Source: a virus. Taken from it: 64,000 nucleotides of DNA. The notes under the pieces were generated by a model. The model had not been told where the DNA came from. It saw only the letters and a list, made by a program, of their open reading frames with translations, and ran no database searches. Below, piece after piece: positions 6,423 through 36,281 of the stretch; within the stretch, counting starts at the first letter, position 1, and every line of letters begins with the position of its first letter. The position numbers and the translations under genes were made by a program. The stretch lies in IMG/VR virus record IMGVR_UViG_3300020057_001232, positions 32,001-96,000 of that record. One strand, 5' to 3'.

Positions 6423-6451
6423 TTTCAAATCTCCAAAAAGTTAAGGGACAC

Positions 6452-7390
6452 TTAAGCACTGACTTCAGCAGTTACCTTGGGTGGAAAAGCAACCGATGCA
6501 ACTACCGAAAGAGCTAAGAGACCTCCGACGACCGCTAGCGACCACATCGTAGGTACATGATAGAAATCGACAACAAGCATCTTGATCCCGATGAAGCCCA
6601 AGACTAACACGAGAGCGTGCTTTAAGTAATGGAACATCGGCATAAGACCAGCTAATGCGAAGTAGAGTGACCGCAGCCCCAAGATCGCAAAGATGTTCGA
6701 CGTGAAAACGATGAAGGGATCTCTAGAAATTGCAATGACTGCCGGGATCGAGTCTACGGCAAACATCAAGTCTGACATCTCGATTACGATCAAACAGGCA
6801 AGAAGCGGTGTGCCGACCCTCTTAGCGTTTTCAATCGTGAACAGCTTGGCTCCGTCGTACTTATCCGTAAAGGGTAAGTAGCGTTTGAAGAATTTCAAAG
6901 CCACGTTGTCTTCTGGGTTGACTTCTTCGTCTTCACCTGACCTAGCCAATTTGTAGGCGGTGTAAACGAGAATAGCGCCGAAGACGTACATCAACCAATG
7001 GAAGTAGTCGAGCAGCGTCACGCCTACGGTGATGAAGAAAGCTCTTGCTACGAGGGCTCCTAAGATGCCCCAAAACAGAACTTTGTGCCGCAGCTTGTCT
7101 TCCACTTTGAAGAAGCTAAACACGACGAGGAAAACGAAAAGGTTGTCAACCGACAACGACTTTTCGAGAATGTAAGCGGTAAGAAATTCACTTGCTGGCT
7201 TAGAGCCTTCTAAGTTGTAGACGAGACCAGCAAAGCCTAAAGCTAAAGCAACCCAAAAGGCGGTCCAGCCTAATGACTCTTTAAACCCTATTTTGTGGTC
7301 CTTCTTGTTGAAGAGACCGAGGTCCAAAAGAAGCATACCCAACACGAAACCTAAAAAGCCTACCCACGCCCACCACGGATGCGATTCCAT
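6452..7390 (-). CDS. terC: TerC/Alx family integral membrane protein
   Basis: LEKSLSVDNLFVF, LFWGILGALVAR, DLMFAVDSIPAV, FTSNIFAILGLRSLYF; start MESHPW with AGGAGG RBS. Confidence 0.92.
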   Translation of the reverse strand: MESHPWWAWVGFLGFVLGMLLLDLGLFNKKDHKIGFKESLGWTAFWVALALGFAGLVYNLEGSKPASEFLTAYILEKSLSVDNLFVFLVVFSFFKVEDKLRHKVLFWGILGALVARAFFITVGVTLLDYFHWLMYVFGAILVYTAYKLARSGEDEEVNPEDNVALKFFKRYLPFTDKYDGAKLFTIENAKRVGTPLLACLIVIEMSDLMFAVDSIPAVIAISRDPFIVFTSNIFAILGLRSLYFALAGLMPMFHYLKHALVLVLGFIGIKMLVVDFYHVPTMWSLAVVGGLLALSVVASVAFPPKVTAEVSA

Positions 7391-7483
7391 ACTTGTCCTC
7401 CTGAAAGTTTGTAGGCATACTGACAGGTAGAAAACCCAGTGGCAACACTTTTCGCACCCAGCACTTTCAAAGCGGGACTTGTT

Positions 7484-8044
7484 ATGTATTGGACAGAATT
7501 TAACTACCGATCTGGACCACAACCTGACTTGACCAAGATTGGTACAAACACGGTTACGGTTCTTAAAAATGTTCTTGATCCTAGTATCCACAAAGCCCTC
7601 AAGCGTTACGTCAACGCCTTGAAAGCTGAGAAAGATACGGCGATGTATTTCGACGAGCAGTGGCAAGGGCGTTGGACAAAGAACAACGATCCCATCATGT
7701 GTTGGGCACATGACCTCCTTACGCCAGTGATCTACTCACGTCTGAAGGTTTCCGTGAAACCGTCTTATAACTTTCTGTCCTGCTACGGCGTCGGCGGCAA
7801 TGTGCCGAAGCACAAAGATAGACCTCAGTGCAAATACACACTCGACTACATGGTGGATCAAAGCGAAGGCTTGAAGTGGGAGCTGTTTGTAGAAGGCAAT
7901 CCCGTTCTTCTTGAGGAGAACGACTGCGTTATCTACTCAGGCACCGACATGTTGCATTGGCGCAATCCTTTGCCTGATGGGCACCACGCTAGTCTTATCT
8001 TCTTCCACTACGTCGATTCGACATTCCGAACGGGACTTGAATGA
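7484..8044 (+). CDS. 2OG-Fe(II) oxygenase-like protein
   Basis: HKDR (HxD), distal HWR, FFHYV; typical phage oxygenase. Confidence 0.75.
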   Translation: MYWTEFNYRSGPQPDLTKIGTNTVTVLKNVLDPSIHKALKRYVNALKAEKDTAMYFDEQWQGRWTKNNDPIMCWAHDLLTPVIYSRLKVSVKPSYNFLSCYGVGGNVPKHKDRPQCKYTLDYMVDQSEGLKWELFVEGNPVLLEENDCVIYSGTDMLHWRNPLPDGHHASLIFFHYVDSTFRTGLE

Positions 8045-11696: not shown

Positions 11697-11719
11697 ACCC
11701 CGACCGACTCCATCTTGGA

Positions 11720-11751
11720 GCCCCGCTGTCACCAAGACAGCGGGGTTTTTG
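11720..11751 (+). terminator. intrinsic terminator/attenuator between Ubl and TROVE-like genes
   Basis: CCCCGCTGTC-ACCAA-GACAGCGGGG followed by a T-tract. Confidence 0.7.
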
Positions 11752-11783
11752 TTATTAACGTTTGTTATCGGAGGTATACAGCC

Positions 11784-13415
11784 ATGACAGAACATAAGCT
11801 CGGCTACTTGAACGATCAAGACCGCCTAAAAATCTACAACACGCTTATCAGTGGTTGTATGCACCTTTGGAGTAAGAACAAACTTCAAGATGGTTCTACC
11901 ATTGATGTAAAAGGCAAAGACGGTAAGACGGTTAAGCAAAAGCTAGAAGACCGCCTTACACCTGTGCTCGAAAGCTTCTCGAAGCTTGCCGAGAGCGACC
12001 CTTTGTTTCTTGCCCACTTCACTAGCTATGCCGTGAAGAAGCTAGATGCGAAGGACTTACGTGTAGTTGCGACATTTGCTTCGACTCTTTCGGACGCAGA
12101 TGGGACGCCCTTTTCCCCTGGAAGCGAATTTAAGAAGCCCAACTGGCGTCTTATCGGGCAAGCAGCTTTCCAGACATTGGACCCTAAGCTTGCTCTACGT
12201 GTTGTGCAACTCGCAAACAGAAAAATGAAGTTCGGTATCAAAGCTGAAGCAACGCACTATTCTAAGTCGCTACGATCAGCAGTGAGGAAATACCTTCGTT
12301 ACCGTGAAGCAAACCCAAAGATGATCGAAGGAATTGTTCGGACAGGTCTCACGAAAACGTACCGTAACCTTTACCGTTGGGCTCGTATTCAGCCTTCGGC
12401 TGAAGCGGCTACGTTTCTTGCTTGGGAGCAGAAAGACGGCTCTGTGAAAGAGGCGGACTTTAAGCAGAACAAGCTTACGTTCGCAGGTTTGTCGGAAGTT
12501 GAAATTGCAGAGAAGATCCGTGCGGAGCGTTTGACGCCGCAGCGTGCTCTCGGTGCGCTCGGGGACAAGATCTCACCCGTTATCGCAGCAGCCGTTCTTG
12601 AGCAGGCTTCGGGCGACCAAGCCGTTATTTTGACAAACTTGTTTGAGGAGCAAGGTCTTCTTAAGAATGTGGAAGTGAAGAAGGTCTACGAAGAGAAGAT
12701 CAAGACGGCAAAAAACGCTTTGGACCGTGTGGATAGAATCAAAGCGGAGCTGTCTGAAGAAACTAAGACGGCGTTGAAGGACAGTAGAAGTGAGACAAGA
12801 AAGGCAAACATTGAAGACTTCGGTCGTGTGTTCGTCCACGTCGATACGTCGCCGTCGATGGCTAACGCTCTCGAAATTGCGAAAGAGTACGGAGCTACCA
12901 TTTCCGAGTTCGTTAAGAACCCAGAGCAGAACTTCTTTTGGGGCTCGTTTGACTCTGCGGGGAAGGTCTTCCCTAACCCACAAAAGTTTACGAAGGACGG
13001 CTTTAAGTTAGCTCTCTACGGGCAGAAAATTGGTGGCTACGGGACGGATTGTCTAGCTCTCTACAAGACAGCTCGTCAGAAAGGTTGTTCAGTTGACATC
13101 TACATCACGGACCAAGATCACAACGGCAAGCTTATCGGTATGACAATTGATGAATGCCGCAGAGAAGGTTTGACTGATCCGCAAGTCGCAGTGATCGTGG
13201 ACGTTCATGGTCGTCAAGACGGGATTCTAAAGCGTGAGCTAGAGAAGGCTGGTATTCCTGTTACCGTGCTTACGGCGAAAGAGCTTGGCGAAAGTGCGCT
13301 CGTAACGCAGGCGGTGAACGTAGCGATGAAGGGGCAGATCGCCGTCCTTGAAGAGATCCTCTCTACAGGGCTACTCGACTTGCCGAAGTGGTGGTACGCC
13401 GTTAAGAGTGCCTAA
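11784..13415 (+). CDS. Ro60/TROVE-like helical protein with C-terminal vWA domain
   Basis: N-terminal helical region (LAESDPLFLAHF) plus vWA MIDAS HVDTSPSM, GTD, ITDQD; about 540 aa, like Ro60/Rsr; GGAGG RBS. Confidence 0.65.
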   Translation: MTEHKLGYLNDQDRLKIYNTLISGCMHLWSKNKLQDGSTIDVKGKDGKTVKQKLEDRLTPVLESFSKLAESDPLFLAHFTSYAVKKLDAKDLRVVATFASTLSDADGTPFSPGSEFKKPNWRLIGQAAFQTLDPKLALRVVQLANRKMKFGIKAEATHYSKSLRSAVRKYLRYREANPKMIEGIVRTGLTKTYRNLYRWARIQPSAEAATFLAWEQKDGSVKEADFKQNKLTFAGLSEVEIAEKIRAERLTPQRALGALGDKISPVIAAAVLEQASGDQAVILTNLFEEQGLLKNVEVKKVYEEKIKTAKNALDRVDRIKAELSEETKTALKDSRSETRKANIEDFGRVFVHVDTSPSMANALEIAKEYGATISEFVKNPEQNFFWGSFDSAGKVFPNPQKFTKDGFKLALYGQKIGGYGTDCLALYKTARQKGCSVDIYITDQDHNGKLIGMTIDECRREGLTDPQVAVIVDVHGRQDGILKRELEKAGIPVTVLTAKELGESALVTQAVNVAMKGQIAVLEEILSTGLLDLPKWWYAVKSA

Positions 13416-16576: not shown

Positions 16577-17611
16577 TTAAAATTCGATTTTTTCTTCTTC
16601 TTTGGTTTTGCCGAGCAGTACCCGCTCCAAGATGCCTTTGACGACGGCTTGGCTTTCTTCGTCGATCCGGCTCAGGAGAATGGAGTCAGCACTCGTCAGA
16701 AGGATGTCGTTGGTATCTTTCGCCGTCAAAGTGCCCTTCTTACGTTTGCTCCTATCGACGTGGCGAAGTAGCATTTGAACCCAATCCTCAAGCTGACGAA
16801 GACCCATTGGTTCAGGCAACTCTTGGCGGAAGAAGCCTTGACGGATGAGGTTTGCGACTTTGACCATCTCCTCTGCGAGCTGCGGCGTGGCTTTCATCCG
16901 TGGGTAACGCTCTGTCAACACGTTTTGCTCGGTGAGCGACGGCAAGTAATCGACGATGTAGATCCGAGCCCGTGTAAGCGTTGCGTAGTTCATCAACTGA
17001 GCACCGGGGTACAGGTGGCGGAAGCTGCTCATTGCACCGACCGTGTTGGCAGTGGCGATGATGCGGAAGTTTTCGTGGGCGACAAGATACTCGTGCCCTT
17101 TCTCTTTCAGCATGAGCTTACGGCGTGGCGAATGCGACTGAACAGGCTCCAAAACATCGTTGAAGGCTGCGAGGATACCGGGATTCACCATGTCGATTTC
17201 GTCGATGATGAGCCACCACCCCTCCCGCATAGCTTTAGGGAGAATGCCGTCCGTCCAAACGGTAGAGCCGTTCATGACAGTGTAACAACCAACAAGCTCG
17301 CTTACGGTCAACGTCTCACCGGCAGGGGCAGCGATGCAGGGTTGGTTGATCCTAGCAGCGATCTGCTTAGCGATGGAGGTCTTGCCCGTACCGGCGTGAC
17401 CGGAAAGGATAACGAAGCGGTCTTCTTTGATGTCAGAAGCAATGTCGAACGTCTTCGGGTGCCATTGGTAAGCAGGGTTGATAGAGGGGACGTTCAAAAG
17501 AGAGTCTCCCGTAGGAGCCCTAACCTCAAACGATACCTCTTCGATCTCGACGTGCATAGCCGGTGCCTGGGTCTCTGTCTTGCGTTGTACGTTGACTTTA
17601 CTTTGTGCCAT
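16577..17611 (-). CDS. MoxR/CbbQ/CobS-type AAA+ ATPase
   Basis: Walker A GHAGTGKT, WTDGILPKAM, Walker B IIDEID, FRIIATANT. Confidence 0.9.
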   Translation of the reverse strand: MAQSKVNVQRKTETQAPAMHVEIEEVSFEVRAPTGDSLLNVPSINPAYQWHPKTFDIASDIKEDRFVILSGHAGTGKTSIAKQIAARINQPCIAAPAGETLTVSELVGCYTVMNGSTVWTDGILPKAMREGWWLIIDEIDMVNPGILAAFNDVLEPVQSHSPRRKLMLKEKGHEYLVAHENFRIIATANTVGAMSSFRHLYPGAQLMNYATLTRARIYIVDYLPSLTEQNVLTERYPRMKATPQLAEEMVKVANLIRQGFFRQELPEPMGLRQLEDWVQMLLRHVDRSKRKKGTLTAKDTNDILLTSADSILLSRIDEESQAVVKGILERVLLGKTKEEEKIEF

Positions 17612-17637
17612 GTCGTTTCGCCCCCCTGTTACTCTTC

Positions 17638-17664
17638 TCTTCGGCATCCGGTGGCAAACCTTTA
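17638..17664 (-). promoter_or_regulatory. sigma-28-type promoter for the AAA operon
   Basis: Minus strand TAAAGGTT-N11-GCCGAAGA (TAAA-N15-GCCGA). Confidence 0.6.
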
Positions 17665-17710
17665 GGAGGAAAATGCAAAGTACACAAGTGTTTTTATTTA
17701 AGTCCTTGAA

Positions 17711-17723
17711 AATCAAAGGGTTA
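17711..17723 (+). promoter_or_regulatory. IHF-like binding site in the divergent promoter region
   Basis: AATCAAAGGGTTA fits WATCAANNNNTTR; an inverted near-copy lies just upstream. Confidence 0.5.
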
Positions 17724-17792: not shown

Positions 17793-19688
17793 ATGCGTTT
17801 CTTCGAATCCAGCCTTGAGCGAATCGCCCGGATCATTACCCAACAGTACGGGGTTCAAATCCTGTTTGAGGGTTCGCAGGCGTATACGAACGGCAAGAAG
17901 ATCGTTTTGCCTGCCCTTCCTAAGGAAGGTGTTGACGCTGAGTTCGCCTCTGACATCCAAGGCTACCTCGATCACGAAGCTGCCCATTGCATCTTCAGTG
18001 ACTTCACGGTCATGCACAAAATCAAGTCGCAGTATCACCACTACCTCTCCAACCACTGCGAAGACGCCCGCATCGAAGTCCTCATGGTGAAGAAGTATTC
18101 CGGTTGCTCTTTGCACCTCGATCCCCTCAACGACAAGTGGAACAAAATCACTATCGCTAAGTGGGATACCTTAGACCGTCTAACCCGTGCCGCTCTCACC
18201 GTCCGTGCGATCATGGAAGGTCACTCGCCTACCATCGACGCCGACCTCTTGCCGCTTTTCACTTCCAAAGTCATGGTGCTCTCGAAGCTCTTGCGTAAGG
18301 CTGCCACTACGCTTCAAGTCATTAAGATCTGCGGTGCCATCATCAAAGAGTTCGACTCGCAAGTTGGTGAGCAAGAGAAGCAAAAGCAGGAAAAGAAAGA
18401 AGAGAAAAAGAAGCAAAAGCAGAAGCAAGAAGAAGGCAAAGGCGAAAAAAGCGAAAGCGGTAAAGGCAAATCCGAAGATCAAGACGGCAAAGCCGGTGAA
18501 GGTCAAGGCGAGAAAGACGACGGCGAAGGTAAAGACGACGACAAAAAAGACGGCGAAGCCGGTGGCGAAGGTAAACCTGAAGGTGAGTCGAAGGACGGCA
18601 AGGGTGAACAAGGCAAAGCTAGCGGAGTGTCTGCCGCAGAAGAGAAAGAGCTTCTCAACGAGTCCCCCGCACCTGCCAACAATGGTCAAGTGCAGTCCCG
18701 TGAAATGAATAAGTTCGAACCGTCGTCGGAAGCTACCGATATCCATTCGTTCATGGACAAAGAGATCAAAGAAAAAATCGAGGAGCAGAAACCAGCCGCT
18801 ACTCGTAGCTACGATTTTGAAAACGTGGCGCACGTACCAGCGTCTACGGCAGAAGATGTTTTGTACGACCGCACCAAAGACGGTCCAAAAGTTCGCCCAG
18901 AGTACCAAGCTCTTAAGCGTGAAATTAACAGCTCGATTACCAAAACCGTAATTGAGCTAGAGCGCATGTTGAAGGTCAAAGAGAACGCACGGACTGTGTT
19001 CGATCAAGAACGTGGGGCTTTAAATCGTGCTCGTCTCCATTCGCTTATTACTGACCCCAACTTCAGAAGACCGTTCACAGCGAAGACACGAGTCGAAACG
19101 ACCAACGTCTCCATCATGTTCCTTTGCGACGTTTCCGGCTCTATGCGTGAGGGGGATAAAATGGAAAGGTTGCGTGAGACCGTTGCCATTCTCGGCGAGT
19201 CCCTTAAGCAGCTCCGCATTGAATTTGAAGTCATCGGCTTCACCACCGGCACGACAACGAAGTTCCCGAGCTACGACGCTCGCTTAACTCGCCACGAGAG
19301 TCTTCAGCACTATCTCTACAAGTCGTTCGAGAGCGAAGATATGGCTCCGATCATCAACATGACGCCGATGGGTTGTAACTGCGACGGTGAAAGCCTGCGT
19401 TTCGCTGCCCGCCGTCTCTCGGAACGTCGGACTAAGCGTAAGATCATGTTTGTGCTCTCGGACGGGTTCCCTAATCCGTCATGCGGCGGTACCCGCATCA
19501 GAGCCGTTTGGAATGCCGACTTGAAAAAAGCCGTCGCTGAAGTCTCGAAGTTCGGAATAGAAGTGGTGGGCTTCGGCATCCTCACAGACGCCGTAAAGAA
19601 CTTTTACAAAGACTACGTGGTCATCCAAGATGTAACTTCGCTGCTTACCGCAGTGCGGACTAAACTTCGCAAAATCCTCACCGCCTAG
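17793..19688 (+). CDS. CobT-like protein: N-terminal metallopeptidase-like HExxH, acidic linker, C-terminal vWA
   Basis: GYLDHEAAH, EDARIE, MIDAS DVSGSM, LSDGFP. Confidence 0.88.
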   Translation: MRFFESSLERIARIITQQYGVQILFEGSQAYTNGKKIVLPALPKEGVDAEFASDIQGYLDHEAAHCIFSDFTVMHKIKSQYHHYLSNHCEDARIEVLMVKKYSGCSLHLDPLNDKWNKITIAKWDTLDRLTRAALTVRAIMEGHSPTIDADLLPLFTSKVMVLSKLLRKAATTLQVIKICGAIIKEFDSQVGEQEKQKQEKKEEKKKQKQKQEEGKGEKSESGKGKSEDQDGKAGEGQGEKDDGEGKDDDKKDGEAGGEGKPEGESKDGKGEQGKASGVSAAEEKELLNESPAPANNGQVQSREMNKFEPSSEATDIHSFMDKEIKEKIEEQKPAATRSYDFENVAHVPASTAEDVLYDRTKDGPKVRPEYQALKREINSSITKTVIELERMLKVKENARTVFDQERGALNRARLHSLITDPNFRRPFTAKTRVETTNVSIMFLCDVSGSMREGDKMERLRETVAILGESLKQLRIEFEVIGFTTGTTTKFPSYDARLTRHESLQHYLYKSFESEDMAPIINMTPMGCNCDGESLRFAARRLSERRTKRKIMFVLSDGFPNPSCGGTRIRAVWNADLKKAVAEVSKFGIEVVGFGILTDAVKNFYKDYVVIQDVTSLLTAVRTKLRKILTA

Positions 19689-20442: not shown

Positions 20443-21189
20443 TCAACCACCAGTGCGGTCAAAGACTGGATAGTTGCCGATGTCGTCGCCGAAGAAAGCT
20501 TGCGGCTGCGACGGGGTTTGACTAAGCCGTCCCTCTTTATCTTCTATGCACGTCTTAACGGAAGCGTAAACATCCCGCCAAGTCGCCACAGGCGTAGCTA
20601 AGGTCTCCACCAAACACGTATCCCAATAGGTGTAGACTTCTTCCGAGCCGCACCCAAAGGATGTTCTGTCTTTCGAGGCAGCAGTCAAAATTATTCTGTT
20701 TGGTTTACGCATGAGCGGTTCAGAGAAAATTCCCGAGTAGCAAGCTGAAATAAGAACGACGGTGGGTCTAGTGCCGCACGTTGCGTCAAGAATGGATGCA
20801 TAGGTCGAAGGGTTCAAACCCGTCTGACCTCTGATGTAGAACTCGCTGCGAGAGCCGTGGGAAGTAATGAAAGCAAAACAGGCGTCCCACGCTCCTAAGT
20901 TGAGATCGGTGAATGCCTGCCTGAAGTTTGCGACAGAGGTTGCCCGCACACCGTTGGTCTGTTGGCTGCTCGACCTCGAAAGCTGCAAGACGTTTTCAGG
21001 TGCAAGACCATCTGCACCCAACAACTCGGCGACTTTCTTTCTTGCATTGTCGAAAGCATTAATGGAGTCGTCGCCTGTCATAAGGACGGCTTTCCAGTTA
21101 AAAAAGCCTCGACTCTCTTGTAAATTGCTAGGATCTGATTGTGCTCCACAGCCTGTCAAAAATAGTAACGCAACGAGCACAACTTTCAT
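20443..21189 (-). CDS. C13 (legumain-like, caspase-hemoglobinase fold) peptidase lipoprotein
   Basis: Lipobox LTGC; ITSHGS, ISACYSG, TAASKDRTSFGC. Confidence 0.85.
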   Translation of the reverse strand: MKVVLVALLFLTGCGAQSDPSNLQESRGFFNWKAVLMTGDDSINAFDNARKKVAELLGADGLAPENVLQLSRSSSQQTNGVRATSVANFRQAFTDLNLGAWDACFAFITSHGSRSEFYIRGQTGLNPSTYASILDATCGTRPTVVLISACYSGIFSEPLMRKPNRIILTAASKDRTSFGCGSEEVYTYWDTCLVETLATPVATWRDVYASVKTCIEDKEGRLSQTPSQPQAFFGDDIGNYPVFDRTGG

Positions 21190-21191: not shown

Positions 21192-21878
21192 CTACTCCCT
21201 ATAAGGGTTCTGTGGGCAGATAGTGATAAGAAGATCTGAACTAAGGATACCATGTTCTTTGTTGCCGACGAAGTAACAGGGGACATCTAGTTTAAAACCC
21301 TTACCAGTGAACATAAGAACTAGACGGTTGATAAATGCGAAGAGTGTGTAGCGCCATCCAGGTATAATATTCTTAAGCAGAGACGGCTCGATGATGGTGA
21401 TGCCGCATTCTTTATAGACCTGCATCGTGGACTCGGTGCAGTAGAGCCGACTAGGGTCTGAGTAGTTGAAGTCGTAGTCTTCATCCAACTCTAAATACTC
21501 TTCGATTTTGTTATGGAGCTTTGTTTCGATCTCAGGCGTGAGATCTTTGTAGCGGAGAACCATGAACTTTTCGTACTGACAAAAGTCTAACCAGTCGATC
21601 ATACGATAAAGAAGCGAACCACGATCATTGATTTCAAAGACGAAGATCTCGTCGCCTTTCATGATTACCATGGCGGCGTGTGAGTATTCACTTTTGCTAA
21701 GTCTAGATACAATCGTACTGAACGGGATGCCGAAGGGACCGTCTGTGTAGCTCTCCCGGACGAGGATGTCCCCTGACTTAAGTCCTAGTTCTTTTAGAAA
21801 GGAAACGATCTTTTTTCTGTTTTTTACTTCCCAAGTTCTTACGGCACTCATATAGCGAAACCCTCGTTTGTTTCTCAT
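21192..21878 (-). CDS. permuted papain-like amidase (YiiX/YaeF, C92)
   Basis: LKSGDIL, YSHAAM, YDFNY...LYCTE. Confidence 0.85.
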   Translation of the reverse strand: MRNKRGFRYMSAVRTWEVKNRKKIVSFLKELGLKSGDILVRESYTDGPFGIPFSTIVSRLSKSEYSHAAMVIMKGDEIFVFEINDRGSLLYRMIDWLDFCQYEKFMVLRYKDLTPEIETKLHNKIEEYLELDEDYDFNYSDPSRLYCTESTMQVYKECGITIIEPSLLKNIIPGWRYTLFAFINRLVLMFTGKGFKLDVPCYFVGNKEHGILSSDLLITICPQNPYRE

Positions 21879-22119
21879 TGAAACTAAAGCGAGGGTTTTT
21901 GCAGGGAGTGGGACTAAATCACCGCTGCGGCTTTAACGAGCTGGCTAAGAAGCTTGCCGTCTTCGGTCTTCATAAACCCACCTCCCCAACTGGCGGAATG
22001 ACCGACGCAGATAATGCGGTAGGTCTTTCGATTGCCGTTCCAATCACTTACAGGAGTTTTTTCCGCTGAGGAAGACAATTCGGCTTGACGTAGGCTTCTT
22101 TTTTTGGTCTCATAGACGT

Positions 22120-22255
22120 GAGGTGGTCCCCTCAGCTTACGTTTACAAGCAAAAGTAGCTCACTTGGTAGAGCAAGACTCGTTCAAAGTTTAGGTAATCG
22201 GTTCAACTCCGATCTATTGCAACAATATAAAACGTAGACAACTTGGACCACCTAC
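22120..22255 (+). ncRNA. structured ncRNA: tRNA-like cloverleaf inside a long closing stem (Y-RNA-like)
   Basis: Cloverleaf 22149-22221 (D arm GCTC-ACTTGGTA-GAGC, T arm ATCGG-TTCAACT-CCGAT). AGGTGGTCC (22121-29) pairs with GGACCACCT (22245-53), and TACGTTT (22138-44) with AAACGTA (22230-36). TTGACG upstream, terminator downstream. Confidence 0.75.
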
Positions 22256-22261
22256 TCTCAT

Positions 22262-22287
22262 AACCCGCACGAGCGGGTTTTTCTTTT
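22262..22287 (+). terminator. intrinsic terminator after the ncRNA
   Basis: AACCCGC-ACGA-GCGGGTT plus TTTCTTTT. Confidence 0.75.
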
Positions 22288-22296
22288 GGTGAAAGC

Positions 22297-23157
22297 ATGT
22301 TGAATTTTACAGCACTAGCCAAACCCGTAAGAGTCGTTGTCCCGATTCTCAACCGCTCTTTTACTTACAACAAGAAGCTTTACAAAATAGGTGTAGACGA
22401 TGGCTGGTGGCAGGTGGAGCTTCAAGGCAATAAAGCGACGGCTATTGAAACACATCTATGGACCGACCCCCCTCGGAATGCTTTACGGGGGGTTAGTTAC
22501 GGCACGAGAGTTGTTTTTTCACATTTTGAAGTGGCTCGCCGCAAATATTCGCTGGACGTTATAGCCCCTCTTGAATTTCCTAATGTTGAAACTTTCGCAA
22601 GTATTTTCGTCATGGTGTGGGAAGATAACCGCACCTACTACGTGATGCCTTGCTACGCAGACTTCAAGACGGTCTACATCAAAGATCTCCTTGACGACAA
22701 TTTAACCCTTGAAAACGTGAAAGAGATAACTCCCGAGCTGCGGACAGTGTTTCTTTTTCATGCACTTGAACGCATCGAGATTCGCAAAAAGCTCGAAGAG
22801 CTTGAGAAGATCAAACATGAAGAGGAAATGAAACAGACCGTAGAAGGTCGCCTTCGGTTTGCCTTTGATCGCTCTGGAGCTACGATCACTGAGTATCACG
22901 TAGGCAATGGTCGCATTGAGGTGACATGGAGCGTTCCGGGAGCAGGCAGTTTCAACTCTGTCCTCGATGACAAAACCTTTATGGTCCTCGAAGCGGGCTA
23001 CTGTATGTCAGGAGATGACCGTCGTCACAACGTCACAAGTATGGTAAAGACGGCGGAAGACTACCACGCACGCCGTCTCGTCCATAGAACTCGTGGTCGC
23101 ACGTTCGACCGCACCTTAGACCCTCACGAGGAACGTGATTATGACTACGACGATTAA
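22297..23157 (+). CDS. hypothetical protein, candidate E2-like/Cys-carrier component
   Basis: C-terminal domain with EAGYCMSGDDRRHNVTSMV; first gene of an operon with JAB and E1. Confidence 0.5.
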   Translation: MLNFTALAKPVRVVVPILNRSFTYNKKLYKIGVDDGWWQVELQGNKATAIETHLWTDPPRNALRGVSYGTRVVFSHFEVARRKYSLDVIAPLEFPNVETFASIFVMVWEDNRTYYVMPCYADFKTVYIKDLLDDNLTLENVKEITPELRTVFLFHALERIEIRKKLEELEKIKHEEEMKQTVEGRLRFAFDRSGATITEYHVGNGRIEVTWSVPGAGSFNSVLDDKTFMVLEAGYCMSGDDRRHNVTSMVKTAEDYHARRLVHRTRGRTFDRTLDPHEERDYDYDD

Positions 23158-23632
23158 TGATATGCCGACTTTTCACCGAGAGAGCAGCCTCGTCACGTAC
23201 TCTTCTCTGCCGCAAATTCTGCGGAAGAAGGTGTCGCTAAGCTTAGGCACGCCGGGAACCGTAGAGTTCGACTTCTTAGAAGTGTGGGAGTTCTTCAAAA
23301 AAGTGAAGACGCACGACGACTACGAGTTCTCCAATTGGCAGTTTTTCCACGTCCACCCTCCCGGACTTAACTGTGCGTCGGGGCTTGATATCGAATGTGC
23401 TAAGGGTCTAGCTTTAGCTTTCGGTCACCCGCTCTACTTCAGCATTGTGACCTTTGGAGCCAACGCCGAAGAACGCACGGTAACAAGCTTCGTCGCTTCG
23501 CCAAGCGGGCTAGAGCAGCTCTCTCCTACGAGTAACATCAATTACTTGAAGGCTTCTTATTTAAGCAAGTCAGAAGCCGAAGATCTATATTGGATGAGTT
23601 ACACAAGCGGGGAAGATTTGTGTCAGAAATAA
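23141..23632 (+). CDS. JAB/JAMM (MPN+) metallopeptidase
   Basis: FFHVHPPGLNCASGLD matches HxH-x7-S-x2-D. Confidence 0.8.
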   Translation: MTTTINDMPTFHRESSLVTYSSLPQILRKKVSLSLGTPGTVEFDFLEVWEFFKKVKTHDDYEFSNWQFFHVHPPGLNCASGLDIECAKGLALAFGHPLYFSIVTFGANAEERTVTSFVASPSGLEQLSPTSNINYLKASYLSKSEAEDLYWMSYTSGEDLCQK

Positions 23633-26209: not shown

Positions 26210-26785
26210 TTGCTCTTTTTCTACACACAGCCCCCGATGTTTGATCGAAAGCAAACTTGGGACTACATCAAAAACCAGTGTACAGGCGAGCGGACCTTCA
26301 GCTTGAAGGGTCGCACGCCGGAGTCGCTTTTGCGGCTTGTAACAGCTTGGCATCGAGATCTAGCACACGACAGGCAGTTAAAGTCATTAGGCATTAGAAA
26401 AGATGCGAAATGGGAACCTTCCGGCATAGGAGCGTTCGAGAAACAAACGGGCTCCATTGAAGAGAACAATTATAAGCTGATCCAGATAAAGGAAATCACC
26501 TCTTATAAAGGGCTTGCAGAAGAAGGCAGACGCATGAAGCACTGCGTCAGAAGCTACGCCCAATCATGTATCGACGGCAGACGAGCCATATTTTCTTTCG
26601 TCCGAGCCGACCTCTGGAATGCAGCAGAGGGGAAAAACAGCTTGACGTTAGAGGTAGACCTCAATGTCCGCAGCATCTGTCAGATCCGTGGCTTTGAAAA
26701 CCGCAAGCCGCTAAGTAGCGAAATGAAGTTCATTCAGGAATGGGCTCAAGTAGAACGCTTAACTGTATCGAGATATCTTTCATGA
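26210..26785 (+). CDS. PcfJ-domain protein, probably 5'-truncated
   Basis: FSLKGRT..SLLRL...WH, LAEEGRRMKHCV.SY, QIRGFENR; TTG start without RBS right after the IS-like hairpin. Confidence 0.7.
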   Translation: MLFFYTQPPMFDRKQTWDYIKNQCTGERTFSLKGRTPESLLRLVTAWHRDLAHDRQLKSLGIRKDAKWEPSGIGAFEKQTGSIEENNYKLIQIKEITSYKGLAEEGRRMKHCVRSYAQSCIDGRRAIFSFVRADLWNAAEGKNSLTLEVDLNVRSICQIRGFENRKPLSSEMKFIQEWAQVERLTVSRYLS

Positions 26786-28259: not shown

Positions 28260-28377
28260 GTATTGATCTTTTAGACGCCGCATTGACCCTAGATCAATGC
28301 GGCGTTTAACTTTAATCCTCTTTGAGGTAAGCTGTCCCCTTCAGAAACCCAGCGAAGCGGTAAAAAAGGTTCAAGAC

Positions 28378-29373
28378 ATGAGAGAAAAGATCTTTCAAGC
28401 CGTCATCGGCTCACATCTTTATGGAACAAGCCGTCCGCAGAGTGACGAAGACTTTTTAGGAGTTTACTTGCCTACGGCGGAAGATCTTTGTTCGATGCAG
28501 AGCCCTCCCGGTGAAATCAGCGAGAACGTCAAACTGACCGAAGGGCGACGTAATTCTGCGGGTGATGTTGACAGCAAATTCTTCAGTGTCAAACGCTTCT
28601 TCGAGCTAGCTCTGCAAGGTCAAACAACTGCTATCGAGCTGTTCTTTGTCCCTGACGAATTAGTAACGATCAAGACACCTCTTTGGGACGAGATCAAAGC
28701 GCACCGCAGTCTCTTCTTGTCGAAACAAAGCGTAGCTCCGTTTGTGGGCTTTTGCCGTTCGCAAGCGGGCAAAGCTACGCTTAAAGGTCAGAACTTAAAG
28801 CAGCTCCAAAAGCTGATAAAGGCTCTTGAAGCGTTGACCGAGAACGACAAGAAAAGAAAGATCATGAGCTTTGTCGATATGGACGACGTTTCGGCGGCAG
28901 AAGCACTAGGGGAGGGAGCCATGCTTTTTGGTATGGAGTTCCCGGTCTTCTTAGATCAGAACGGCATCTTCCATTTGGTCGTCTGCAACAACCGTAAACT
29001 CACCATAAACAACACGGCGGAATCGTGGCTGACGACAGCTCGTATTCTAGAAGAACGCTACGGCACAAGGGTTCGGACGGCGGCTGACACCCACTACGAT
29101 TACAAGTCGCTTTACCATGCGTTTAGAATCGCTGGCGAAGCTGAAGAGCTTTTGGTCGAGGGGCGCTTGAGCTTGCCGAGACCACAGCAGGAGTTGGAGT
29201 TTTTAATGGCGCTACGTGCGGAGACTTTTGCCCCCGACTACATGGAGCAGTTAGAAGCCTGTATTGCCAAAGTCGAAGCACTCAAAAGCAAAAGCTCTTT
29301 GCCTGATAAGCCTGACTACGACGCCGTTGGAAAACTCTGCATTGACTTACACCGTAAACTTTTTAACGCTTGA
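28378..29373 (+). CDS. DNA pol-beta superfamily nucleotidyltransferase (RlaP-like)
   Basis: GSHLYGTSRPQSDEDFLGVY; KSLYHAFRI; SSLPDKPD. Confidence 0.85.
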   Translation: MREKIFQAVIGSHLYGTSRPQSDEDFLGVYLPTAEDLCSMQSPPGEISENVKLTEGRRNSAGDVDSKFFSVKRFFELALQGQTTAIELFFVPDELVTIKTPLWDEIKAHRSLFLSKQSVAPFVGFCRSQAGKATLKGQNLKQLQKLIKALEALTENDKKRKIMSFVDMDDVSAAEALGEGAMLFGMEFPVFLDQNGIFHLVVCNNRKLTINNTAESWLTTARILEERYGTRVRTAADTHYDYKSLYHAFRIAGEAEELLVEGRLSLPRPQQELEFLMALRAETFAPDYMEQLEACIAKVEALKSKSSLPDKPDYDAVGKLCIDLHRKLFNA

Positions 29374-30845: not shown

Positions 30846-31190
30846 TCAGCGGCTTTTTTTCGCAAGATGTTTAACGAGGTTTTTGATCTTGATACGTGGA
30901 CGCTTTTCTAGTGCCACTACAATTTCAATCTCTTCTCCGGACGTGCTTGAATAAACACGGTGGACTACGGAATGATCGACGACCGACACTCGCCACTGGT
31001 CCACTTCTTCGAGTTTCTTTTTTCCAACGACAAGGTTGCGAGTTGTCCCTTCGCTGATCGACGCTTCGATGCCTTTAACGGCAAGGGCTCTTACAAGGAT
31101 TCTGTCGATGAGGGCAGTAACGTCCTTTTCGTATTCACGTCTTTCGTCCGTGCTTGGGAAACGGTACTTACTGAGAACTTTGTGCATCAT
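30846..31190 (-). CDS. hypothetical protein
   Basis: ORF overlapping the upstream stop. Confidence 0.5.
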   Translation of the reverse strand: MMHKVLSKYRFPSTDERREYEKDVTALIDRILVRALAVKGIEASISEGTTRNLVVGKKKLEEVDQWRVSVVDHSVVHRVYSSTSGEEIEIVVALEKRPRIKIKNLVKHLAKKSR

Positions 31191-31999
31191 TGGTCAACTC
31201 GGTACATAAAAAAGTAATCGTCCATCACTTCCGCTGCGGGATATCCCCGCCACATCGGCGTGTGACCATATTCGTCATCCGTCAATTGGCTGACTTCGGT
31301 GGCGAGATCCCTGAATGTAGCTAGGGGCTTTTCAGTGGTGAATTTTTCTACAGTCTGCCTAAACGTGTACGTAAACGACCCACCCCGAGCACTACCTAAA
31401 TCTTGGGAGTTTTCATTTTGCTTAGACGCAGAGAAGATGAAAGCTTGCTTGTAGAGAGTGTTCGCTTGCTCTTGTAGCGGCTCTTCGATGGTTTCTGCTA
31501 TGAGAGGGTGCGAACCCGTTTCGGAGTCGGGCTCAGTGACAATTGCGTCACCGTTGCCGTCAACGAAAGAGCCGGACAGGCAGGAGTCGAGCATGACGAT
31601 CAAGCGGTCGAAAGGCTCGGTGCGGACTTCAGCGATGGCAGCGATGACTTCCCTGAAGGTAAACGAGCGGTCGTCCGCCAAAAGGATACCTCTGTTGCCG
31701 TGCCCGCTGAAGTAGAAGAGAAAGCTGTCAGCTTCTCTAGCTTCTTGTTTTACAAGATCGAAGATTTCGCTTGTTGATGCGTTGGCGTCGATGGCGACGT
31801 TGAAGTGGTATTCCGGCTTTGAGAAGAGCGTATTCAGCTCTCTGATGTCGGTAGGTACCCCGGCTAAGCCGTTGGGGGCACCTATGAGGACAGCACGGTT
31901 GTTACCACCGCCGTCGTACCCTAAGCCGTTTAAGGACGACGTTGAAGGTGGTTGTCCGCAGCCTGCTAGAACAAGAACGCTGAGAATAAGCTTTTTCAT
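31187..31999 (-). CDS. caspase-family (C14) peptidase lipoprotein
   Basis: Lipobox LAGC; FYFSGHG, LDSCLSG, GGSFT. Confidence 0.85.
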   Translation of the reverse strand: MKKLILSVLVLAGCGQPPSTSSLNGLGYDGGGNNRAVLIGAPNGLAGVPTDIRELNTLFSKPEYHFNVAIDANASTSEIFDLVKQEAREADSFLFYFSGHGNRGILLADDRSFTFREVIAAIAEVRTEPFDRLIVMLDSCLSGSFVDGNGDAIVTEPDSETGSHPLIAETIEEPLQEQANTLYKQAFIFSASKQNENSQDLGSARGGSFTYTFRQTVEKFTTEKPLATFRDLATEVSQLTDDEYGHTPMWRGYPAAEVMDDYFFMYRVDQ

Positions 32000-32004
32000 A
32001 CAGC

Positions 32005-32682
32005 TTAATCTTGGACAAGAGACCCTCCAGGGAAGCACCGCGATTCAGGAAGCATCCACTCATCAGCGTAGTCCTTGACGGTGCCTGCCTTGATTCGGGC
32101 GTCCAACTCGTACCAATATATTGCCTTCTTCTCACCTACGAAGCACTTGGAAAACGGCTCTTGCACAAGCCAAGGGATCACCGCTGTCGCATCGACGATA
32201 GCCATTATCACTACGTATTCATGGAACTTTTCAGGGGTAAGTGTGAAGGCTATCTTGCCGCGAGGATCGACAAGAATGGGATCTATTTGTCGCCTAGCGG
32301 TCTCTAGTTGAAAGAACCAGCTTGGACCGCCGAACTTTTTACTTTGTGACGTGATTTGTGCTTTTACAGCTAACTCTTCCTTAAGGGGACCATAGAGAAG
32401 GTCTGCCTTGTACGACTTGTAGGCAGGTGGGTAGTAAGTAAAATCAGGCTTACTGCACTTCGCACCGAGGCTTTTCGAAACACCTTCTTCCCCACGCCCG
32501 CCGATATAGCAGTCGTTACCGACCTGTACGGCATCATCTTGTTTGGAGTCGTCGTAGAGATCGCCATTGCCCACACGTTCGTTTCCGAAGTTCCGTGCTG
32601 CTACGACGCTCTCCGGCGACAGCCGGACGATCCTATCGCTTCTATATATGACCTCGAACTCGCGCATTTGCCGTGCCGCCAT
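32005..32682 (-). CDS. hypothetical protein (possible PD-(D/E)xK-like)
   Basis: GGRGEE, ADL...LAVK. Confidence 0.45.
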   Translation of the reverse strand: MAARQMREFEVIYRSDRIVRLSPESVVAARNFGNERVGNGDLYDDSKQDDAVQVGNDCYIGGRGEEGVSKSLGAKCSKPDFTYYPPAYKSYKADLLYGPLKEELAVKAQITSQSKKFGGPSWFFQLETARRQIDPILVDPRGKIAFTLTPEKFHEYVVIMAIVDATAVIPWLVQEPFSKCFVGEKKAIYWYELDARIKAGTVKDYADEWMLPESRCFPGGSLVQD

Positions 32683-33053: not shown

Positions 33054-36000
33054 TTACTTTCTTCCGCCCCTAGGTACGAACACGCCTAACACTCTGTTAT
33101 TGGTCATTACGACATTGTGGGTAGATGAGTTACCTCCAGTGTACTGCCCACCTGAGCGAGATCCACCAGCTAAAACCAAGCCTTTTCGTTGTTGCACACG
33201 GCGAATTTGAACTCCACCTTTGTACTCGAAGTTGGCTTTATATTTTTCATTCCAAAGGAAGGTAGCACCAAGAACCATGGCTCTGAAAAGGTCGTCGTGC
33301 CCATCCCCTTTTGTAATTTTAGTGCCGACTTCAGATACGGAAAGCATCTGCCAAAGAAGGTGCATGTAAGGTCTTTTGTAAAGCAACTCTTCGATGGGCT
33401 CCGGTCTGTCGTCTACTTCGTCGAGTGGGATCTCCGGGGCTACGGTCTCGAACAAGCCTTGATAAAGCTGCGCCCTGAAAGCAATGAAGTCTCTATAGGT
33501 AAGACTGTACTGCTGTGCGTCGATACCGAGCTTTCTGATGGCGTCGATCTGCGACTGACTCTGCCATTGGTCGTAGAGAACCAAGCGGACGTTGACCTTC
33601 TCGCAGATCGTAGCGACCATCTTTTGATACATACCGTCGAAGTCAACGACCTCGCCGTGGGTACGGTCGGGATAAAGAGCCCAAGCACCTGCCACTTGCA
33701 CAACTTTGAAGTCGTCTTCTTTTAGTTTAAGAAGCGTCAAGGCGTAGCCGCAGTCCGACTTACCCATATCAATAGATAGGCAGTAAGGGATCGACTTATC
33801 TCTATCAAGCTGTGAGGCATCAAAGAAAGGACCGATGATGCTCTTGTCGATCTTTACGTTCCAGTAAGGCTCCTCAAGCTTTGCCGACTTGAGAACCAAG
33901 TCTTCACTGTCAATAAAAGGATCGTCCGCAAACGGTGGGATAGAGCCATAGTCACGAGCGAACGCTTTCGGATCTTTTCTCTTTTCGTTGTCTAAGAAGA
34001 CGGGATCAATGTCAGGGTTGACCTCCCAACTTGCTTTGTGTGAAGTGACCTTCTTTGGGTCCGTCTTGCCGGTCTTGATAAGACGCATGATGTAGTCAGA
34101 CTTCGACATCGTAGACGAAACTGCACAGAGGTAGCCCGTAGGCACGTTGTAGTCACCTTTCACAAAGAGCTTGGCTGCTTTGTTACGGATGGTAGCAGCA
34201 GACTTTTCGTAGGCGATGTAGGTTTCTTTGGCGTTAGCTCTTTTGGCATCTTCACCACCGCCGAACCAACCGATTTCGTCGATACAAGAAAAGATACCTG
34301 TACGACCACGGGACGTATCTAGGGCAGCTCCTTGGACGTAACCGGAGATGCCTTTGTGAAAGTAGGAGAACTCCTCCGTCAACCACTTGTAGACCTCAAC
34401 GCCCTTTTTCTTAGCGTAGAAGTCGAGCAAATCGTGGTACTGCGAAAACCAGTTGGAAGTCTCTATAGCACGGCAGAACTGCATCCAATTTGATTCTTTA
34501 GCCTGCTTCAAAGTGATAGCAATGAAACGCATGTAGAGCTGCTGACCTCGAAGCTGCTCGAAGTAGCCTGCGGGGTCAGGAAGCTTGAGGTAACGGTGAA
34601 GAACGTAGGAGCCAATCATGCCTCCTGCTACAGCCGACTTACCAGAGTTATGGTGTAGGAAACCGTCCCCCGTGTAAACGTTCGTGCCTGGAACGTGGAT
34701 GTCCATCATCTCTTCAATGGGACCGTCCTTGATGACCTTTATCTTTACGGGGAAGTAACCTTCGTCTATCAACTTCTTCAGCTTTTCAGGGGCGTTTTTG
34801 TAGGTGGTCGTCTGAGTCCCCGCAACGGCACCTAACGGAAGTGAGAAGTAGGGACGCCCCTTTATTCCTTTAGCTTTATCAAGTGTCTTTTTTTTCTGCT
34901 CGGAAGCTAAATGTACGTTCTCTTGGAAAATTCGAACAGAATTTGAATTTTTAGTTGAGATGTTGAAGGCAACGCCTTTTTCATCGGGATCGTAATTTTT
35001 TAAGTAAGTATTAGCTTTTGCAAAACCGTTTAGTCTCATCGTACTACATCTAGTAACGATACCTAAATTTAAAAGTAAAATACGAACTTGCTCAGCGAGT
35101 GTTTTGGAAACTGTAGTGTAGTAGACCTTTACCTTTTGACGCCCGTTGGGCATCGTCTCAGCATGGACTCCTCCATCGCCGTCGAAGAGACCTGCAAGAA
35201 ACTCGCAGACGATTTCTTTAGGGGAGCGAAGGATGAAGTCTGGAACAATCTTGTCGTGGGAAGTCTCAGGTTTTAGTCCAATCCAATTTAGCCACTCCAT
35301 TACGGCAACACCATTCAATGTCCAACATTTATAAAATGGGACCGTCGCACATTCCCTGTACTCCTCAAGCTTAGGCTCCTCACCGAACACTGCCAGGCAG
35401 CACCTTTTGATATCTGCATCAATATCAGGATTGCTAGACACAATCCGTAAGTTGTACTTTCTGGTGTACTGACCATCAGAGACTAGATATCCAACCAGTC
35501 TTGCCAGCTCGGGCGTTACCTCCGTTGGGAAGCAGAAGTCTTTTGCTTGCTGTCCGTGTTCTAATTTATCTCGGCGAAAAGCCCCCAACTGGAAGCGGCT
35601 CTCTGCCCACATGTTTGCGGAATACAGAAGTACAACGTCGCCGACCTTGCAATCTTTCATGAGCTTGTGCTCAATCTCACAGTCTGTATTAAGTGTCGGC
35701 ACGATATGGCTTTGCTTGGCACCCGACATGATCCAGTTGTAGTCTGTGGTAAAGCGGAGCGATTCCTTCTTGCCGACATATATTTTCTCAGCAACAGTTC
35801 CATGTGTTAATTCATCGCCGACCTCTACCTTGTTAAATTCAATAATTCCCCTATTTTTCGTATATATTCTAGTATGTTGGGAAACACACCTCATCCCCCA
35901 CAGAAGATCCACTTCGTCCGGCATATACCAAAAATTGTCGTTGTAGTGATCTAAGCGTGTCGTTTTGCACTTTGGGCAGCGACCGTCATCGAGAAGCTGA

Positions 36001-36281
36001 ATGCGGCTTAAAATTTCATCCGACTTTAGATCGGCAGTGAAGTCTTTACTGTAAAATTCCCAATCTGAGCAGTGCGGGCAAACGTCTCCGAAGAGACGAA
36101 GCATACTCTGAAGCTGAATTGGGTATACCGTTTTGGTATCTAGGAAGTCAGAGTCCATACACCAACTGACGATATTCTTAGCCCAAGGCAGGTCTCTGTC
36201 GTCAAATTCAGTAACGGCACCAGGATCGAAGCCAGCCTTGATGGCGTCTTCGATCATTTTCGAGGGATTAAAGTCGGTCAT
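33054..36281 (-). CDS. terL: terminase large subunit containing an intein
   Basis: Walker A WGMR|SGKS after intein removal, Walker B CIDEIG, RNase-H-like nuclease SIDMG...YDQWQS...HDDL. Confidence 0.88.
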   Translation of the reverse strand: MTDFNPSKMIEDAIKAGFDPGAVTEFDDRDLPWAKNIVSWCMDSDFLDTKTVYPIQLQSMLRLFGDVCPHCSDWEFYSKDFTADLKSDEILSRIQLLDDGRCPKCKTTRLDHYNDNFWYMPDEVDLLWGMRCVSQHTRIYTKNRGIIEFNKVEVGDELTHGTVAEKIYVGKKESLRFTTDYNWIMSGAKQSHIVPTLNTDCEIEHKLMKDCKVGDVVLLYSANMWAESRFQLGAFRRDKLEHGQQAKDFCFPTEVTPELARLVGYLVSDGQYTRKYNLRIVSSNPDIDADIKRCCLAVFGEEPKLEEYRECATVPFYKCWTLNGVAVMEWLNWIGLKPETSHDKIVPDFILRSPKEIVCEFLAGLFDGDGGVHAETMPNGRQKVKVYYTTVSKTLAEQVRILLLNLGIVTRCSTMRLNGFAKANTYLKNYDPDEKGVAFNISTKNSNSVRIFQENVHLASEQKKKTLDKAKGIKGRPYFSLPLGAVAGTQTTTYKNAPEKLKKLIDEGYFPVKIKVIKDGPIEEMMDIHVPGTNVYTGDGFLHHNSGKSAVAGGMIGSYVLHRYLKLPDPAGYFEQLRGQQLYMRFIAITLKQAKESNWMQFCRAIETSNWFSQYHDLLDFYAKKKGVEVYKWLTEEFSYFHKGISGYVQGAALDTSRGRTGIFSCIDEIGWFGGGEDAKRANAKETYIAYEKSAATIRNKAAKLFVKGDYNVPTGYLCAVSSTMSKSDYIMRLIKTGKTDPKKVTSHKASWEVNPDIDPVFLDNEKRKDPKAFARDYGSIPPFADDPFIDSEDLVLKSAKLEEPYWNVKIDKSIIGPFFDASQLDRDKSIPYCLSIDMGKSDCGYALTLLKLKEDDFKVVQVAGAWALYPDRTHGEVVDFDGMYQKMVATICEKVNVRLVLYDQWQSQSQIDAIRKLGIDAQQYSLTYRDFIAFRAQLYQGLFETVAPEIPLDEVDDRPEPIEELLYKRPYMHLLWQMLSVSEVGTKITKGDGHDDLFRAMVLGATFLWNEKYKANFEYKGGVQIRRVQQRKGLVLAGGSRSGGQYTGGNSSTHNVVMTNNRVLGVFVPRGGRK
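34647..35888 (-). mobile_element. intein with LAGLIDADG homing endonuclease (414 aa)
   Basis: Starts CVSQHT, ends GFLHHN followed by Ser; LVGYLVSDG and FLAGLFDGDG blocks; visibly more AT-rich than the flanks. Confidence 0.92.

Follow-up and report, generated by a model that had tools for sequence, protein, structure and literature searches.

A phage RNA with a tRNA-shaped head belongs to a conserved family and is probably the Y RNA of a divergent phage Ro60

The stretch of DNA analyzed here (the window) comprises 64,000 nucleotides (nt) of a large uncultured phage, bases 32001-96000 of the 118-kb IMG/VR record IMGVR_UViG_3300020057_001232, which is classed as a provirus and estimated to be 49% complete. 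It encodes a structured RNA in which a head shaped like a transfer RNA (tRNA) sits on a long stalk formed by the two ends of the molecule, just upstream of genes for a 286-amino-acid (286-aa) protein, a JAB/JAMM-type protein, and a ThiF/E1-type adenylating enzyme. This RNA is a member of a conserved family in related phages, and we consider it probable that it is a phage Y RNA and the partner of a Ro60 encoded by the same phage. An earlier note, made from the sequence alone, had proposed a Ro-like ligand with an unpermuted tRNA attached through its acceptor stem, and all the sequence features that it listed are present where it placed them. Conserved helices, a Ro60 homologue, and YrlA-like paralogues now support that proposal, and from analogy with known complexes we infer that the RNA binds Ro60. 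All positions are those of the window (Table 1) unless another locus is named; L numbers denote fetched related loci, and G000 is the window's own phage record.

Results

A covarying stalk defines an RNA family

The ends of the window RNA pair as a perfect 9-bp helix, P1 (AGGTGGTCC with GGACCACCT), which a 4x4 internal loop of CCTC opposite ACTT separates from P2, a helix of 11 positions of which 9 are paired (AGCTTACGTTT with AAACGTAGACA; the non-pairs, A·A and C·A, lie at its base). A perfect 9-bp helix, a 7-bp helix, and a terminator belonging to the RNA itself had all been described in the earlier note; the 7-bp helix turns out to be the top of P2, and the terminator is a stem-loop (22262-22279) followed by a T tract. 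RNAfold recovers both helices (minimum free energy, -48.1 kcal/mol; z = -2.47), and because 4 of 200 shuffles fold equally well, the single-sequence fold is only modestly above chance. What places the helices beyond chance is that relatives keep both P1 and P2 through compensatory changes. A simple scan upstream of the RNA found no sigma-70-like promoter.

Relatives came from 2 viral and 37 metagenome loci, fetched with an alignment of homologues of the 286-aa protein. Three initial motif scans, whose output was very noisy, were used solely to spot candidates, and the architecture was then read in the flanks, giving 19 distinct RNAs from the window and nine loci. All share the order P1 (at least 9 bp), C[C/A]YN, P2 (10 to 12 positions, with CUU at the end), ACAAGC, a variable head, the P2 3' strand, ACUU, and the P1 3' strand. 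The last begins with G[G/A]AC, so that the loop-proximal GUYC/GRAC pairs are conserved. The first base of the 5' loop is C in 18 of the 19 RNAs as printed, and in all 19 with a manual inner register for L030; the 3' loop is ACTT in 16 as printed and in 17 with the manual register for L030. The box between P2 and the head is ACAAGC in 18 RNAs and ACATGC in one.

With registers anchored on these motifs, 169 of 171 P1 cells are paired, with three to five pair types at positions 5 to 9, compared with a mean of 104 (standard deviation [SD], 6.2; maximum, 127) when 3' strands were swapped among the sequences 1,000 times. For P2, 129 of 171 cells are paired (shuffled mean, 86.3; SD, 5.8; maximum, 108). 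MAFFT alignments (A3 and A4) placed the 3' strand of the window RNA one column off register, and pairs were therefore counted both with the anchored registers and on an alignment fitted to R1, a covariance model built from seven unpermuted members. On the 36 distinct rows of the fitted alignment, pairs changed on both sides at nine of nine positions in P1 and 10 of 11 in P2, and none of 500 shuffles reached the observed covariation values. There, 90.3% of cells pair, compared with 34 to 43% when partners are slid by one to three columns; for P2 alone the figure is 80.5%. An alignment fitted to R1 leans toward the model, a bias from which the motif-anchored count is free. The earlier note had looked to covariation in homologues upstream of similar E1/JAB operons as a check, and it is there that the flanking helices are conserved.

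A scan with R1 of 36 sources (211,862 bases in total) returned 41 matches at E <= 1, among them 25 distinct full-length family members in related uncultured-phage contigs. Some rows are duplicates (those of L042 equal L002, and those of L038 equal L027), and the remainder consist of L007, which is cut at its 5' end, ordinary tRNAs matched over the tRNA part alone, and two short fragments. The window RNA is thus one member of a conserved family. BLAST of a 201-nt region against plasmid and phage collections gave no match, and a scan of viral contigs through both flanking proteins found no close relative. The sequencing runs that hold this DNA are all DNA runs from microbial mat (seven of seven), with no RNA run among them.

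Three head topologies are borne by one stalk

The head of the window RNA is a 73-nt cloverleaf, the only tRNA-like gene across the whole window, and ARAGORN calls it tRNA-Glu with anticodon ttc. It matches the Rfam tRNA model at 51.4 bits (gathering score, 29; model positions 1 to 71), with intact D and T arms. The features that the earlier note had listed as degenerate are all legible in the sequence: the acceptor stem GCAAAAG/CTATTGC is interrupted by an A·A at 5:68, G occupies position 33 of the anticodon loop CGTTCAA, where a decoding tRNA has U, and the discriminator A is followed by ACA, with no CCA encoded.

Across the family the same stalk carries unpermuted cloverleaves, circularly permuted tRNA-like domains, or stubs. 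Cloverleaves joined through the acceptor stem are found in the window, L006, L015a/b, L008, L027a, and L044, and in L030 without the D arm. Permuted heads, in which the T arm is followed by a closed acceptor-like hairpin and then by the D arm, and which may or may not have a closed anticodon arm, occur in L002b, L020a/b, L023b, L025a-c, L027b, and L041b; stubs occur in L002c and L027c. Arrays of two to four copies are common, and tandem arrays of three or four RNAs with mixed head types lie on single contigs in L002 (2134-2707), L025 (190-693), and L027 (5827-6729, minus strand). The window's phage itself has two further copies outside the window, both permuted (G000:C1:111033-111176 and 111602-111744, both minus strand; loci L049 and L048). 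In each of them the T arm comes first, followed by a closed acceptor hairpin, the D arm, and the anticodon arm, and ARAGORN miscalls one of the two regions as a 99-nt "tRNA-Met."

The anticodon is not conserved among heads on the common stalk. Upstream of the homologous 286-aa gene, ARAGORN calls Leu-cag in L006, Leu-tag in L015, and Arg-acg in L008/L009, and in L027/L028/L037 it reports an undetermined "tRNA" 3.4 kb downstream on the opposite strand. What follows the discriminator also varies: it is CCA in L027a (L027 6425-6559, minus strand), CCC in L015b (L015 2302-2438), and ACA in the window and L006. The CCA and CCC of L027a and L015b may bear on head release and CCA-tailing.

One alternative is that the window RNA is a working phage tRNA whose P1 and P2 form a removable processing stalk, cut by RNase III or by RNase P/Z to leave a CCA-tailed, aminoacylated tRNA of about 76 nt; its unusual anticodon loop would then perhaps resist host anticodon nucleases. 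Like a functional phage tRNA, the head is a cloverleaf with conserved D and T loops that scores above the Rfam tRNA threshold. Heads of L006, L015, and L008 score 52 to 63 bits, L027a encodes CCA, and the YrlA RNA of Mycobacterium smegmatis is reported to be cleaved by RNase P and CCA-tailed in vivo (Chen et al. 2014, PMC4201824). Unlike a functional phage tRNA, the window RNA has G in place of the near-universal U33, a mismatched acceptor stem, and a long conserved stalk whose unpaired motifs a mere processing helix would not need. Orthologous heads bear unrelated anticodons (ttc, cag, tag, and acg), one of the heads, L027a, having a 6-nt anticodon loop. Bacterial tRNA-Leu has a long variable arm, whereas both "Leu" heads carry a 5-nt variable loop and have class-I bodies. 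In paralogues the same stalk bears permuted or stub heads that could not be tRNAs, and the phage's genuine tRNAs (Met, Ile, and Val) match R1 over the tRNA part only and have no P1 or P2. A working tRNA is therefore very improbable; G33, the acceptor mismatch, the unrelated anticodons, and the class-I bodies with Leu anticodons argue that this head does not decode.

The same phage encodes a divergent Ro60-like protein

An open reading frame at 11715-13415, with an ATG at 11784, encodes 543 aa, and the profile and structural evidence indicates that its product is a divergent Ro60. A profile of this protein and 40 homologues had a single match in the PDB, RO60 (9nen; E = 1.4e-5), in an alignment that runs through the DxSxS motif of the vWA domain. 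The three residues of this metal ion-dependent adhesion site (D354, S356, and S358) are invariant in all 41 sequences and align with the Ro60 motif. The AlphaFold2 model (pLDDT, 84.7) retrieves Ro60 or TROVE proteins at Foldseek ranks 1 to 13, with E values from 1.1e-10 to 2.6e-6 over 519 to 619 columns, a probability of 1.00, and TM scores by query of 0.44 to 0.56; the matches span Thermus phage phiLo (ranks 1 to 3), Xenopus, human, and Deinococcus Ro60. The earlier note had proposed a binding assay of the RNA with this protein, and both searches point to a Ro60 homologue.

Standard models miss the protein. Pfam finds neither TROVE (PF05731) nor any other family in it, and a homologue 49% identical to it scores 25.5 bits against Pfam vWA_Ro60, just below the cutoff of 27.7. 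The clade is sizeable: in metagenomes it comprises 182 or more protein clusters at E <= 0.001.

Family RNAs accompany the Ro60-like gene in relatives

When the window proteins were run by tblastn against all loci, the order conserved in relatives was Ro60-like gene, family RNAs, 286-aa protein, JAB, and E1. Thirteen distinct loci have a Ro60-like gene upstream of the 286-aa gene. In 14 loci the JAB-like and E1 genes come after the 286-aa gene, and in L027/L028/L037 they come before it. Family RNAs stand between the Ro60-like and 286-aa genes in L002, L006, L008, L015, and L035, just upstream of the Ro60-like gene in L025, L041, and L043, and further downstream in L044; in seven loci (L002, L006, L008, L025, L041, L043, and L044) an RNA is less than 2 kb from the Ro60-like gene. 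Of the loci that extend at least 2.4 kb upstream from the 286-aa gene, eight of the nine with a Ro60-like gene contain a family RNA, compared with one of the five without, numbers that are small and come from related loci. A distant Ro60-like gene (28% identity) on the contig of a metagenome-assembled genome, L053, also has a family RNA nearby (19.6 bits).

This co-occurrence bears on a second alternative, a tRNA decoy that acts independently of Ro60 by soaking up a host tRNA-targeting nuclease or a tRNA-binding defense protein, its stems serving only to stabilize it. A decoy for anticodon nucleases had been the other role suggested in the earlier note. A tRNA-like shape with an aberrant anticodon loop would suit such a role in a phage, and RNA-repair-associated genes lie 4 to 6 kb downstream of the RNA: one for a PcfJ-like protein (26210-26785) and one for RlaP (28297-29373), a pol-beta nucleotidyltransferase of an RNA repair pathway. 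However, what the family conserves is the stalk and neither the head nor the anticodon loop, some members have only a stub for a head, and the RNA tracks the Ro60-like gene. We regard such a decoy as quite improbable.

A third alternative is that the RNA is a cis-acting leader or attenuator of the 286-aa/JAB/E1 operon that, with the terminator before the ATG at 22297, controls read-through. The terminator ends about 8 nt before that start codon, and an RNA lies directly 5' of the orthologous gene in L004, L006, L007, L015, and L023. Yet members also stand in tandem arrays of two to four, upstream of the Ro60-like gene (L025 and L041), and, in L027, downstream of the operon and on the opposite strand; the window's phage has two more copies at a distance of 57 kb, and no such RNA precedes operons of the L010/L014/L019 type. 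A leader function is thus extremely unlikely.

The family resembles YrlA in its base and differs in its stalk

Y RNA-like RNAs are known to adjoin Ro60 genes in bacteria and phages (Chen et al. 2014, PMC4201824). Like the window family, YrlA as described from Salmonella, Mycobacterium, and mycobacteriophages is a small RNA near a Ro60 gene, often in tandem, whose ends form a basal stem with ACUUG before the 3' strand and which carries a tRNA-like effector module with T and D arms. In the YrlA consensus AcUuG stands immediately 5' of the 3' strand of the closing helix, and its placement in the phage family is the same. The earlier note had proposed a search with YrlA and Y RNA models, and its outcome was divided: four permuted members gave sub-threshold matches to Rfam YrlA (RF02553; L020, 33.9 bits; L037, 32.2 bits over model positions 1 to 114; L041, 29.1 bits; L035, 26.9 bits), but the window RNA itself gave none. 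The best reading of these sequence likenesses is that the family is related to bacterial YrlA and is missed by the Rfam YrlA model. Unlike YrlA, the phage family has the additional 11-bp P2 and the ACAAGC box, the window head keeps tRNA order with an open acceptor stem and a full anticodon arm where YrlA is permuted, and the presumed Ro60 partner is too divergent for Pfam TROVE.

Two other systems invite comparison. Yrn1 of Deinococcus radiodurans is described as having the opposite T/D arm order and a possible anticodon arm (Chen et al. 2014, PMC4201824). Read from the 5' end, its D-like arm and T arm follow tRNA order, as in the window RNA, and both ends form its Ro60-binding stem; given Yrn1, the unpermuted orientation is not wholly without precedent. 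By description alone, Yrn1 differs in having a 6-nt "anticodon" loop and neither a full D arm nor a variable region, whereas the window RNA is a complete cloverleaf. In Thermus phage phiLo, a phage Ro60 is reported to bind the phage's Yrl RNAs and host PNPase (NAR 2025, PMC12135203; PDB 9kop and 9l5y). Yrl1 and Yrl2 adjoin its gene, and the phage analyzed here likewise encodes both a Ro60-like protein and putative Y RNAs. The description given of the two phiLo RNAs is that of a stem-bulge-stem form with a CGAA motif; the paper's text contains none of the words "tRNA-like," "operon," and "neighbor," and it discusses no neighboring genes. The structure-based sequence identity of phiLo Ro60 and the window protein is 15 to 16%.

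Several results weigh against a Y RNA partnered with Ro60. On the RNA side, positions 22050-22320 gave no match to a YrlA or Y RNA model in Rfam at E <= 10, only to tRNA; locus L048, where the phage's two other copies lie, gave none at E <= 1; and the YrlA gathering score of 69 is above the score of every family member. The Ro60-site motif GNCGAAN0-1G, or CGAA, given in both papers cited above is absent from the 5' strand and loop of the window RNA. On the protein side, six-frame TROVE searches of G000, G001, and G002 were blank at E <= 1 with positive controls. As for gene order, the Ro60-like gene of the window lies 8.7 kb upstream of the RNA, whose closest neighbors are the E1/JAB operon and a pair of peptidase genes, and L050 and L034 have a Ro60-like gene with no family RNA within the fetched flanks. 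With these points taken into account, a phage Y RNA that partners the phage's Ro60 is still the reading we hold to be likely.

A separate observation concerns L044, whose Ro60-like gene is the most distant viral one (38% identity). Its RNA (L044 7307-7437) has ATTC in place of ACTT before P1 and CCGAA in the 5' strand, closer to the published CGAA motif.

Table 1. Positions of the RNA, its parts, and the genes discussed
Feature	Position in window	Strand	Basis or remark
Divergent Ro60-like protein, helical ring and vWA domain with DxSxS	11784..13415	+	Profile, AlphaFold2, Foldseek
Whole structured RNA	22121-22253	+	Cloverleaf enclosed by P1 and P2, intrinsic terminator 3'
P1 5' strand, AGGTGGTCC	22121..22129	+	Sequence and RNAfold; family covariation
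Internal loop, 5' side, CCTC	22130..22133	+	4x4 loop; family pattern C[C/A]YN
P2 5' strand, AGCTTACGTTT	22134..22144	+	Sequence, RNAfold, family alignment
ACAAGC box, conserved	22145..22150	+	Last two bases are acceptor-stem positions 1-2
tRNA-like head, unpermuted cloverleaf, nominal anticodon UUC	22149..22221	+	ARAGORN, Rfam
3' linker, unpaired, acceptor stem to P2	22222..22229	+	Sequence, RNAfold
P2 3' strand, AAACGTAGACA	22230..22240	+	Sequence, family alignment
Internal loop, 3' side, ACTT	22241..22244	+	With the next G, ACUUG
P1 3' strand, GGACCACCT	22245..22253	+	Sequence, family covariation
Intrinsic terminator, 7-bp GC-rich hairpin and T tract	22262..22289	+	Stem-loop 22262-22279
286-aa protein, first operon gene after the RNA in relatives	22297..23157	+	Homologue alignment, structure model
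JAB/JAMM-type protein, 165 aa, motif HxHx7SxxD	23135..23632	+	Motif read from alignment
ThiF/E1-type adenylating enzyme, 205 aa	23590..24207	+	Library matches; PADLOC

The downstream operon and neighboring genes

The 286-aa protein has 25 homologues, all metagenomic and 36 to 46% identical to it. Its model (pLDDT, 87.2) combines a pair of beta-barrels at the N terminus with a long helix and a C-terminal alpha/beta domain in which Cys236 and His244 are invariant. Pfam, NCBIfam, PHROGs, and PADLOC hold nothing for it; a PDB profile search returned a chance match alone (E = 0.87), Foldseek had no match at E <= 0.001, and a search of the protein atlas gave no usable match. VIA-align places the oligonucleotide/oligosaccharide-binding (OB) folds of Mpa/PAN, eIF1A, and RNase R at Z scores of 5.8 to 6.6 and, for residues 181 to 261, the central domain of FANCL at 5.9, all below the reliable level. 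With structural matches this middling, "OB-fold" and especially "E2-like" are leads rather than findings. A predicted complex of the Ro60-like and 286-aa proteins scored 0.28 against a mark of 0.32. Of the other two products, the JAB-type protein has an orthologue in L006 with a weak Prok-JAB match, and the 205-aa protein matches the E1 part of PADLOC CBASS E1-E2 models (best E = 4.1e-10).

In the interval from the Ro60-like gene to the RNA, divergently transcribed genes encode a MoxR-type AAA_5 ATPase (16577-17716, minus strand) and a CobT-like vWA protein (PHROG 1576; 17793-19688, plus strand). Directly 5' of the RNA, on the other strand, are two genes for C13/C14 caspase/legumain-like peptidases (20443-21189 and 21192-21878, both minus). 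Elsewhere in the window the phage encodes a permuted papain-like C92 amidase (31187-32038, minus) and a 1,075-aa open reading frame with an internal LAGLIDADG domain, probably an intein-bearing gene (33054-36281, minus); genes for a TerC-family membrane protein and a TerF-like vWA protein adjoin each other at 5788-7711 (minus). The RNA was also considered as an attachment site or integration target, a reading that was dropped because phage genes flank the element on both sides and its conservation, stalk included, extends to unrelated contexts.

Discussion

As a phage Y RNA, the window RNA would be transcribed from about 22120 to the terminator at about 22285, and the two ends of the transcript would pair as P1, the 4x4 internal loop, and P2. 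The basal module, with ACUUG on its 3' strand as in the YrlA consensus, would be the docking site for the ring of the phage's divergent Ro60. The head would then act as an effector module and offer its tRNA shape to proteins that bind tRNA or are of the OB/S1 type, candidates being host PNPase (as in known Ro60/Y RNA complexes), tRNA-processing enzymes, and the neighboring protein with putative OB folds; a partner bound to the head could gate or tether Ro60 during infection. This division of labor, with the stalk for docking and the head as effector, is drawn by analogy with Ro60/Y RNA biology and with the Ro60 of phiLo. Release of the head by RNase P is conceivable, given the reported cleavage of M. 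smegmatis YrlA, and would leave a two-piece stalk.

A bolder proposal is that the RNA physically links the Ro60 ring to a ubiquitin-type conjugation machine, with its stem on Ro60, its head in the OB barrels of the 286-aa protein, and the Cys domain of that protein working with E1 and JAB. We think this unlikely. If true, the phage would run RNA-scaffolded or RNA-damage-triggered protein tagging, and swaps among unpermuted, permuted, and stub heads would retarget the system.

Much of the setting was already described: Y RNA-like RNAs beside Ro60, tRNA-like heads, Yrn1 with its opposite arm order, and TROVE proteins in some jumbo phages (Iyer 2021). New here are a divergent Ro60 clade and an RNA family that escape standard models, a distinct basal module, three head topologies that include a full cloverleaf annotated as a tRNA, and a conserved link to an E1/JAB operon. 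The supplements of Chen et al. (2014), which list phage YrlA RNAs, may already include relatives of this clade. Full-text searches, with supplements and the Annual Review article on bacterial Ro60 outside their scope, returned no paper tying Ro60 or TROVE to E1 or JAB genes.

Because tRNA finders label RNAs of this family tRNA-Glu, tRNA-Leu, or tRNA-Arg, counts of phage tRNAs are inflated by them. Three head topologies on one Ro60-type stalk amount to a natural experiment on what each part of a Y RNA is required for and on the path by which tRNAs give rise to tRNA mimics. That one gene order, from the Ro60-like gene to E1, recurs suggests that Ro60 ribonucleoproteins and ubiquitin-like conjugation are functionally tied, and it offers a testable handle on the roles of the Y RNA effector module and of the vWA domain of Ro60.

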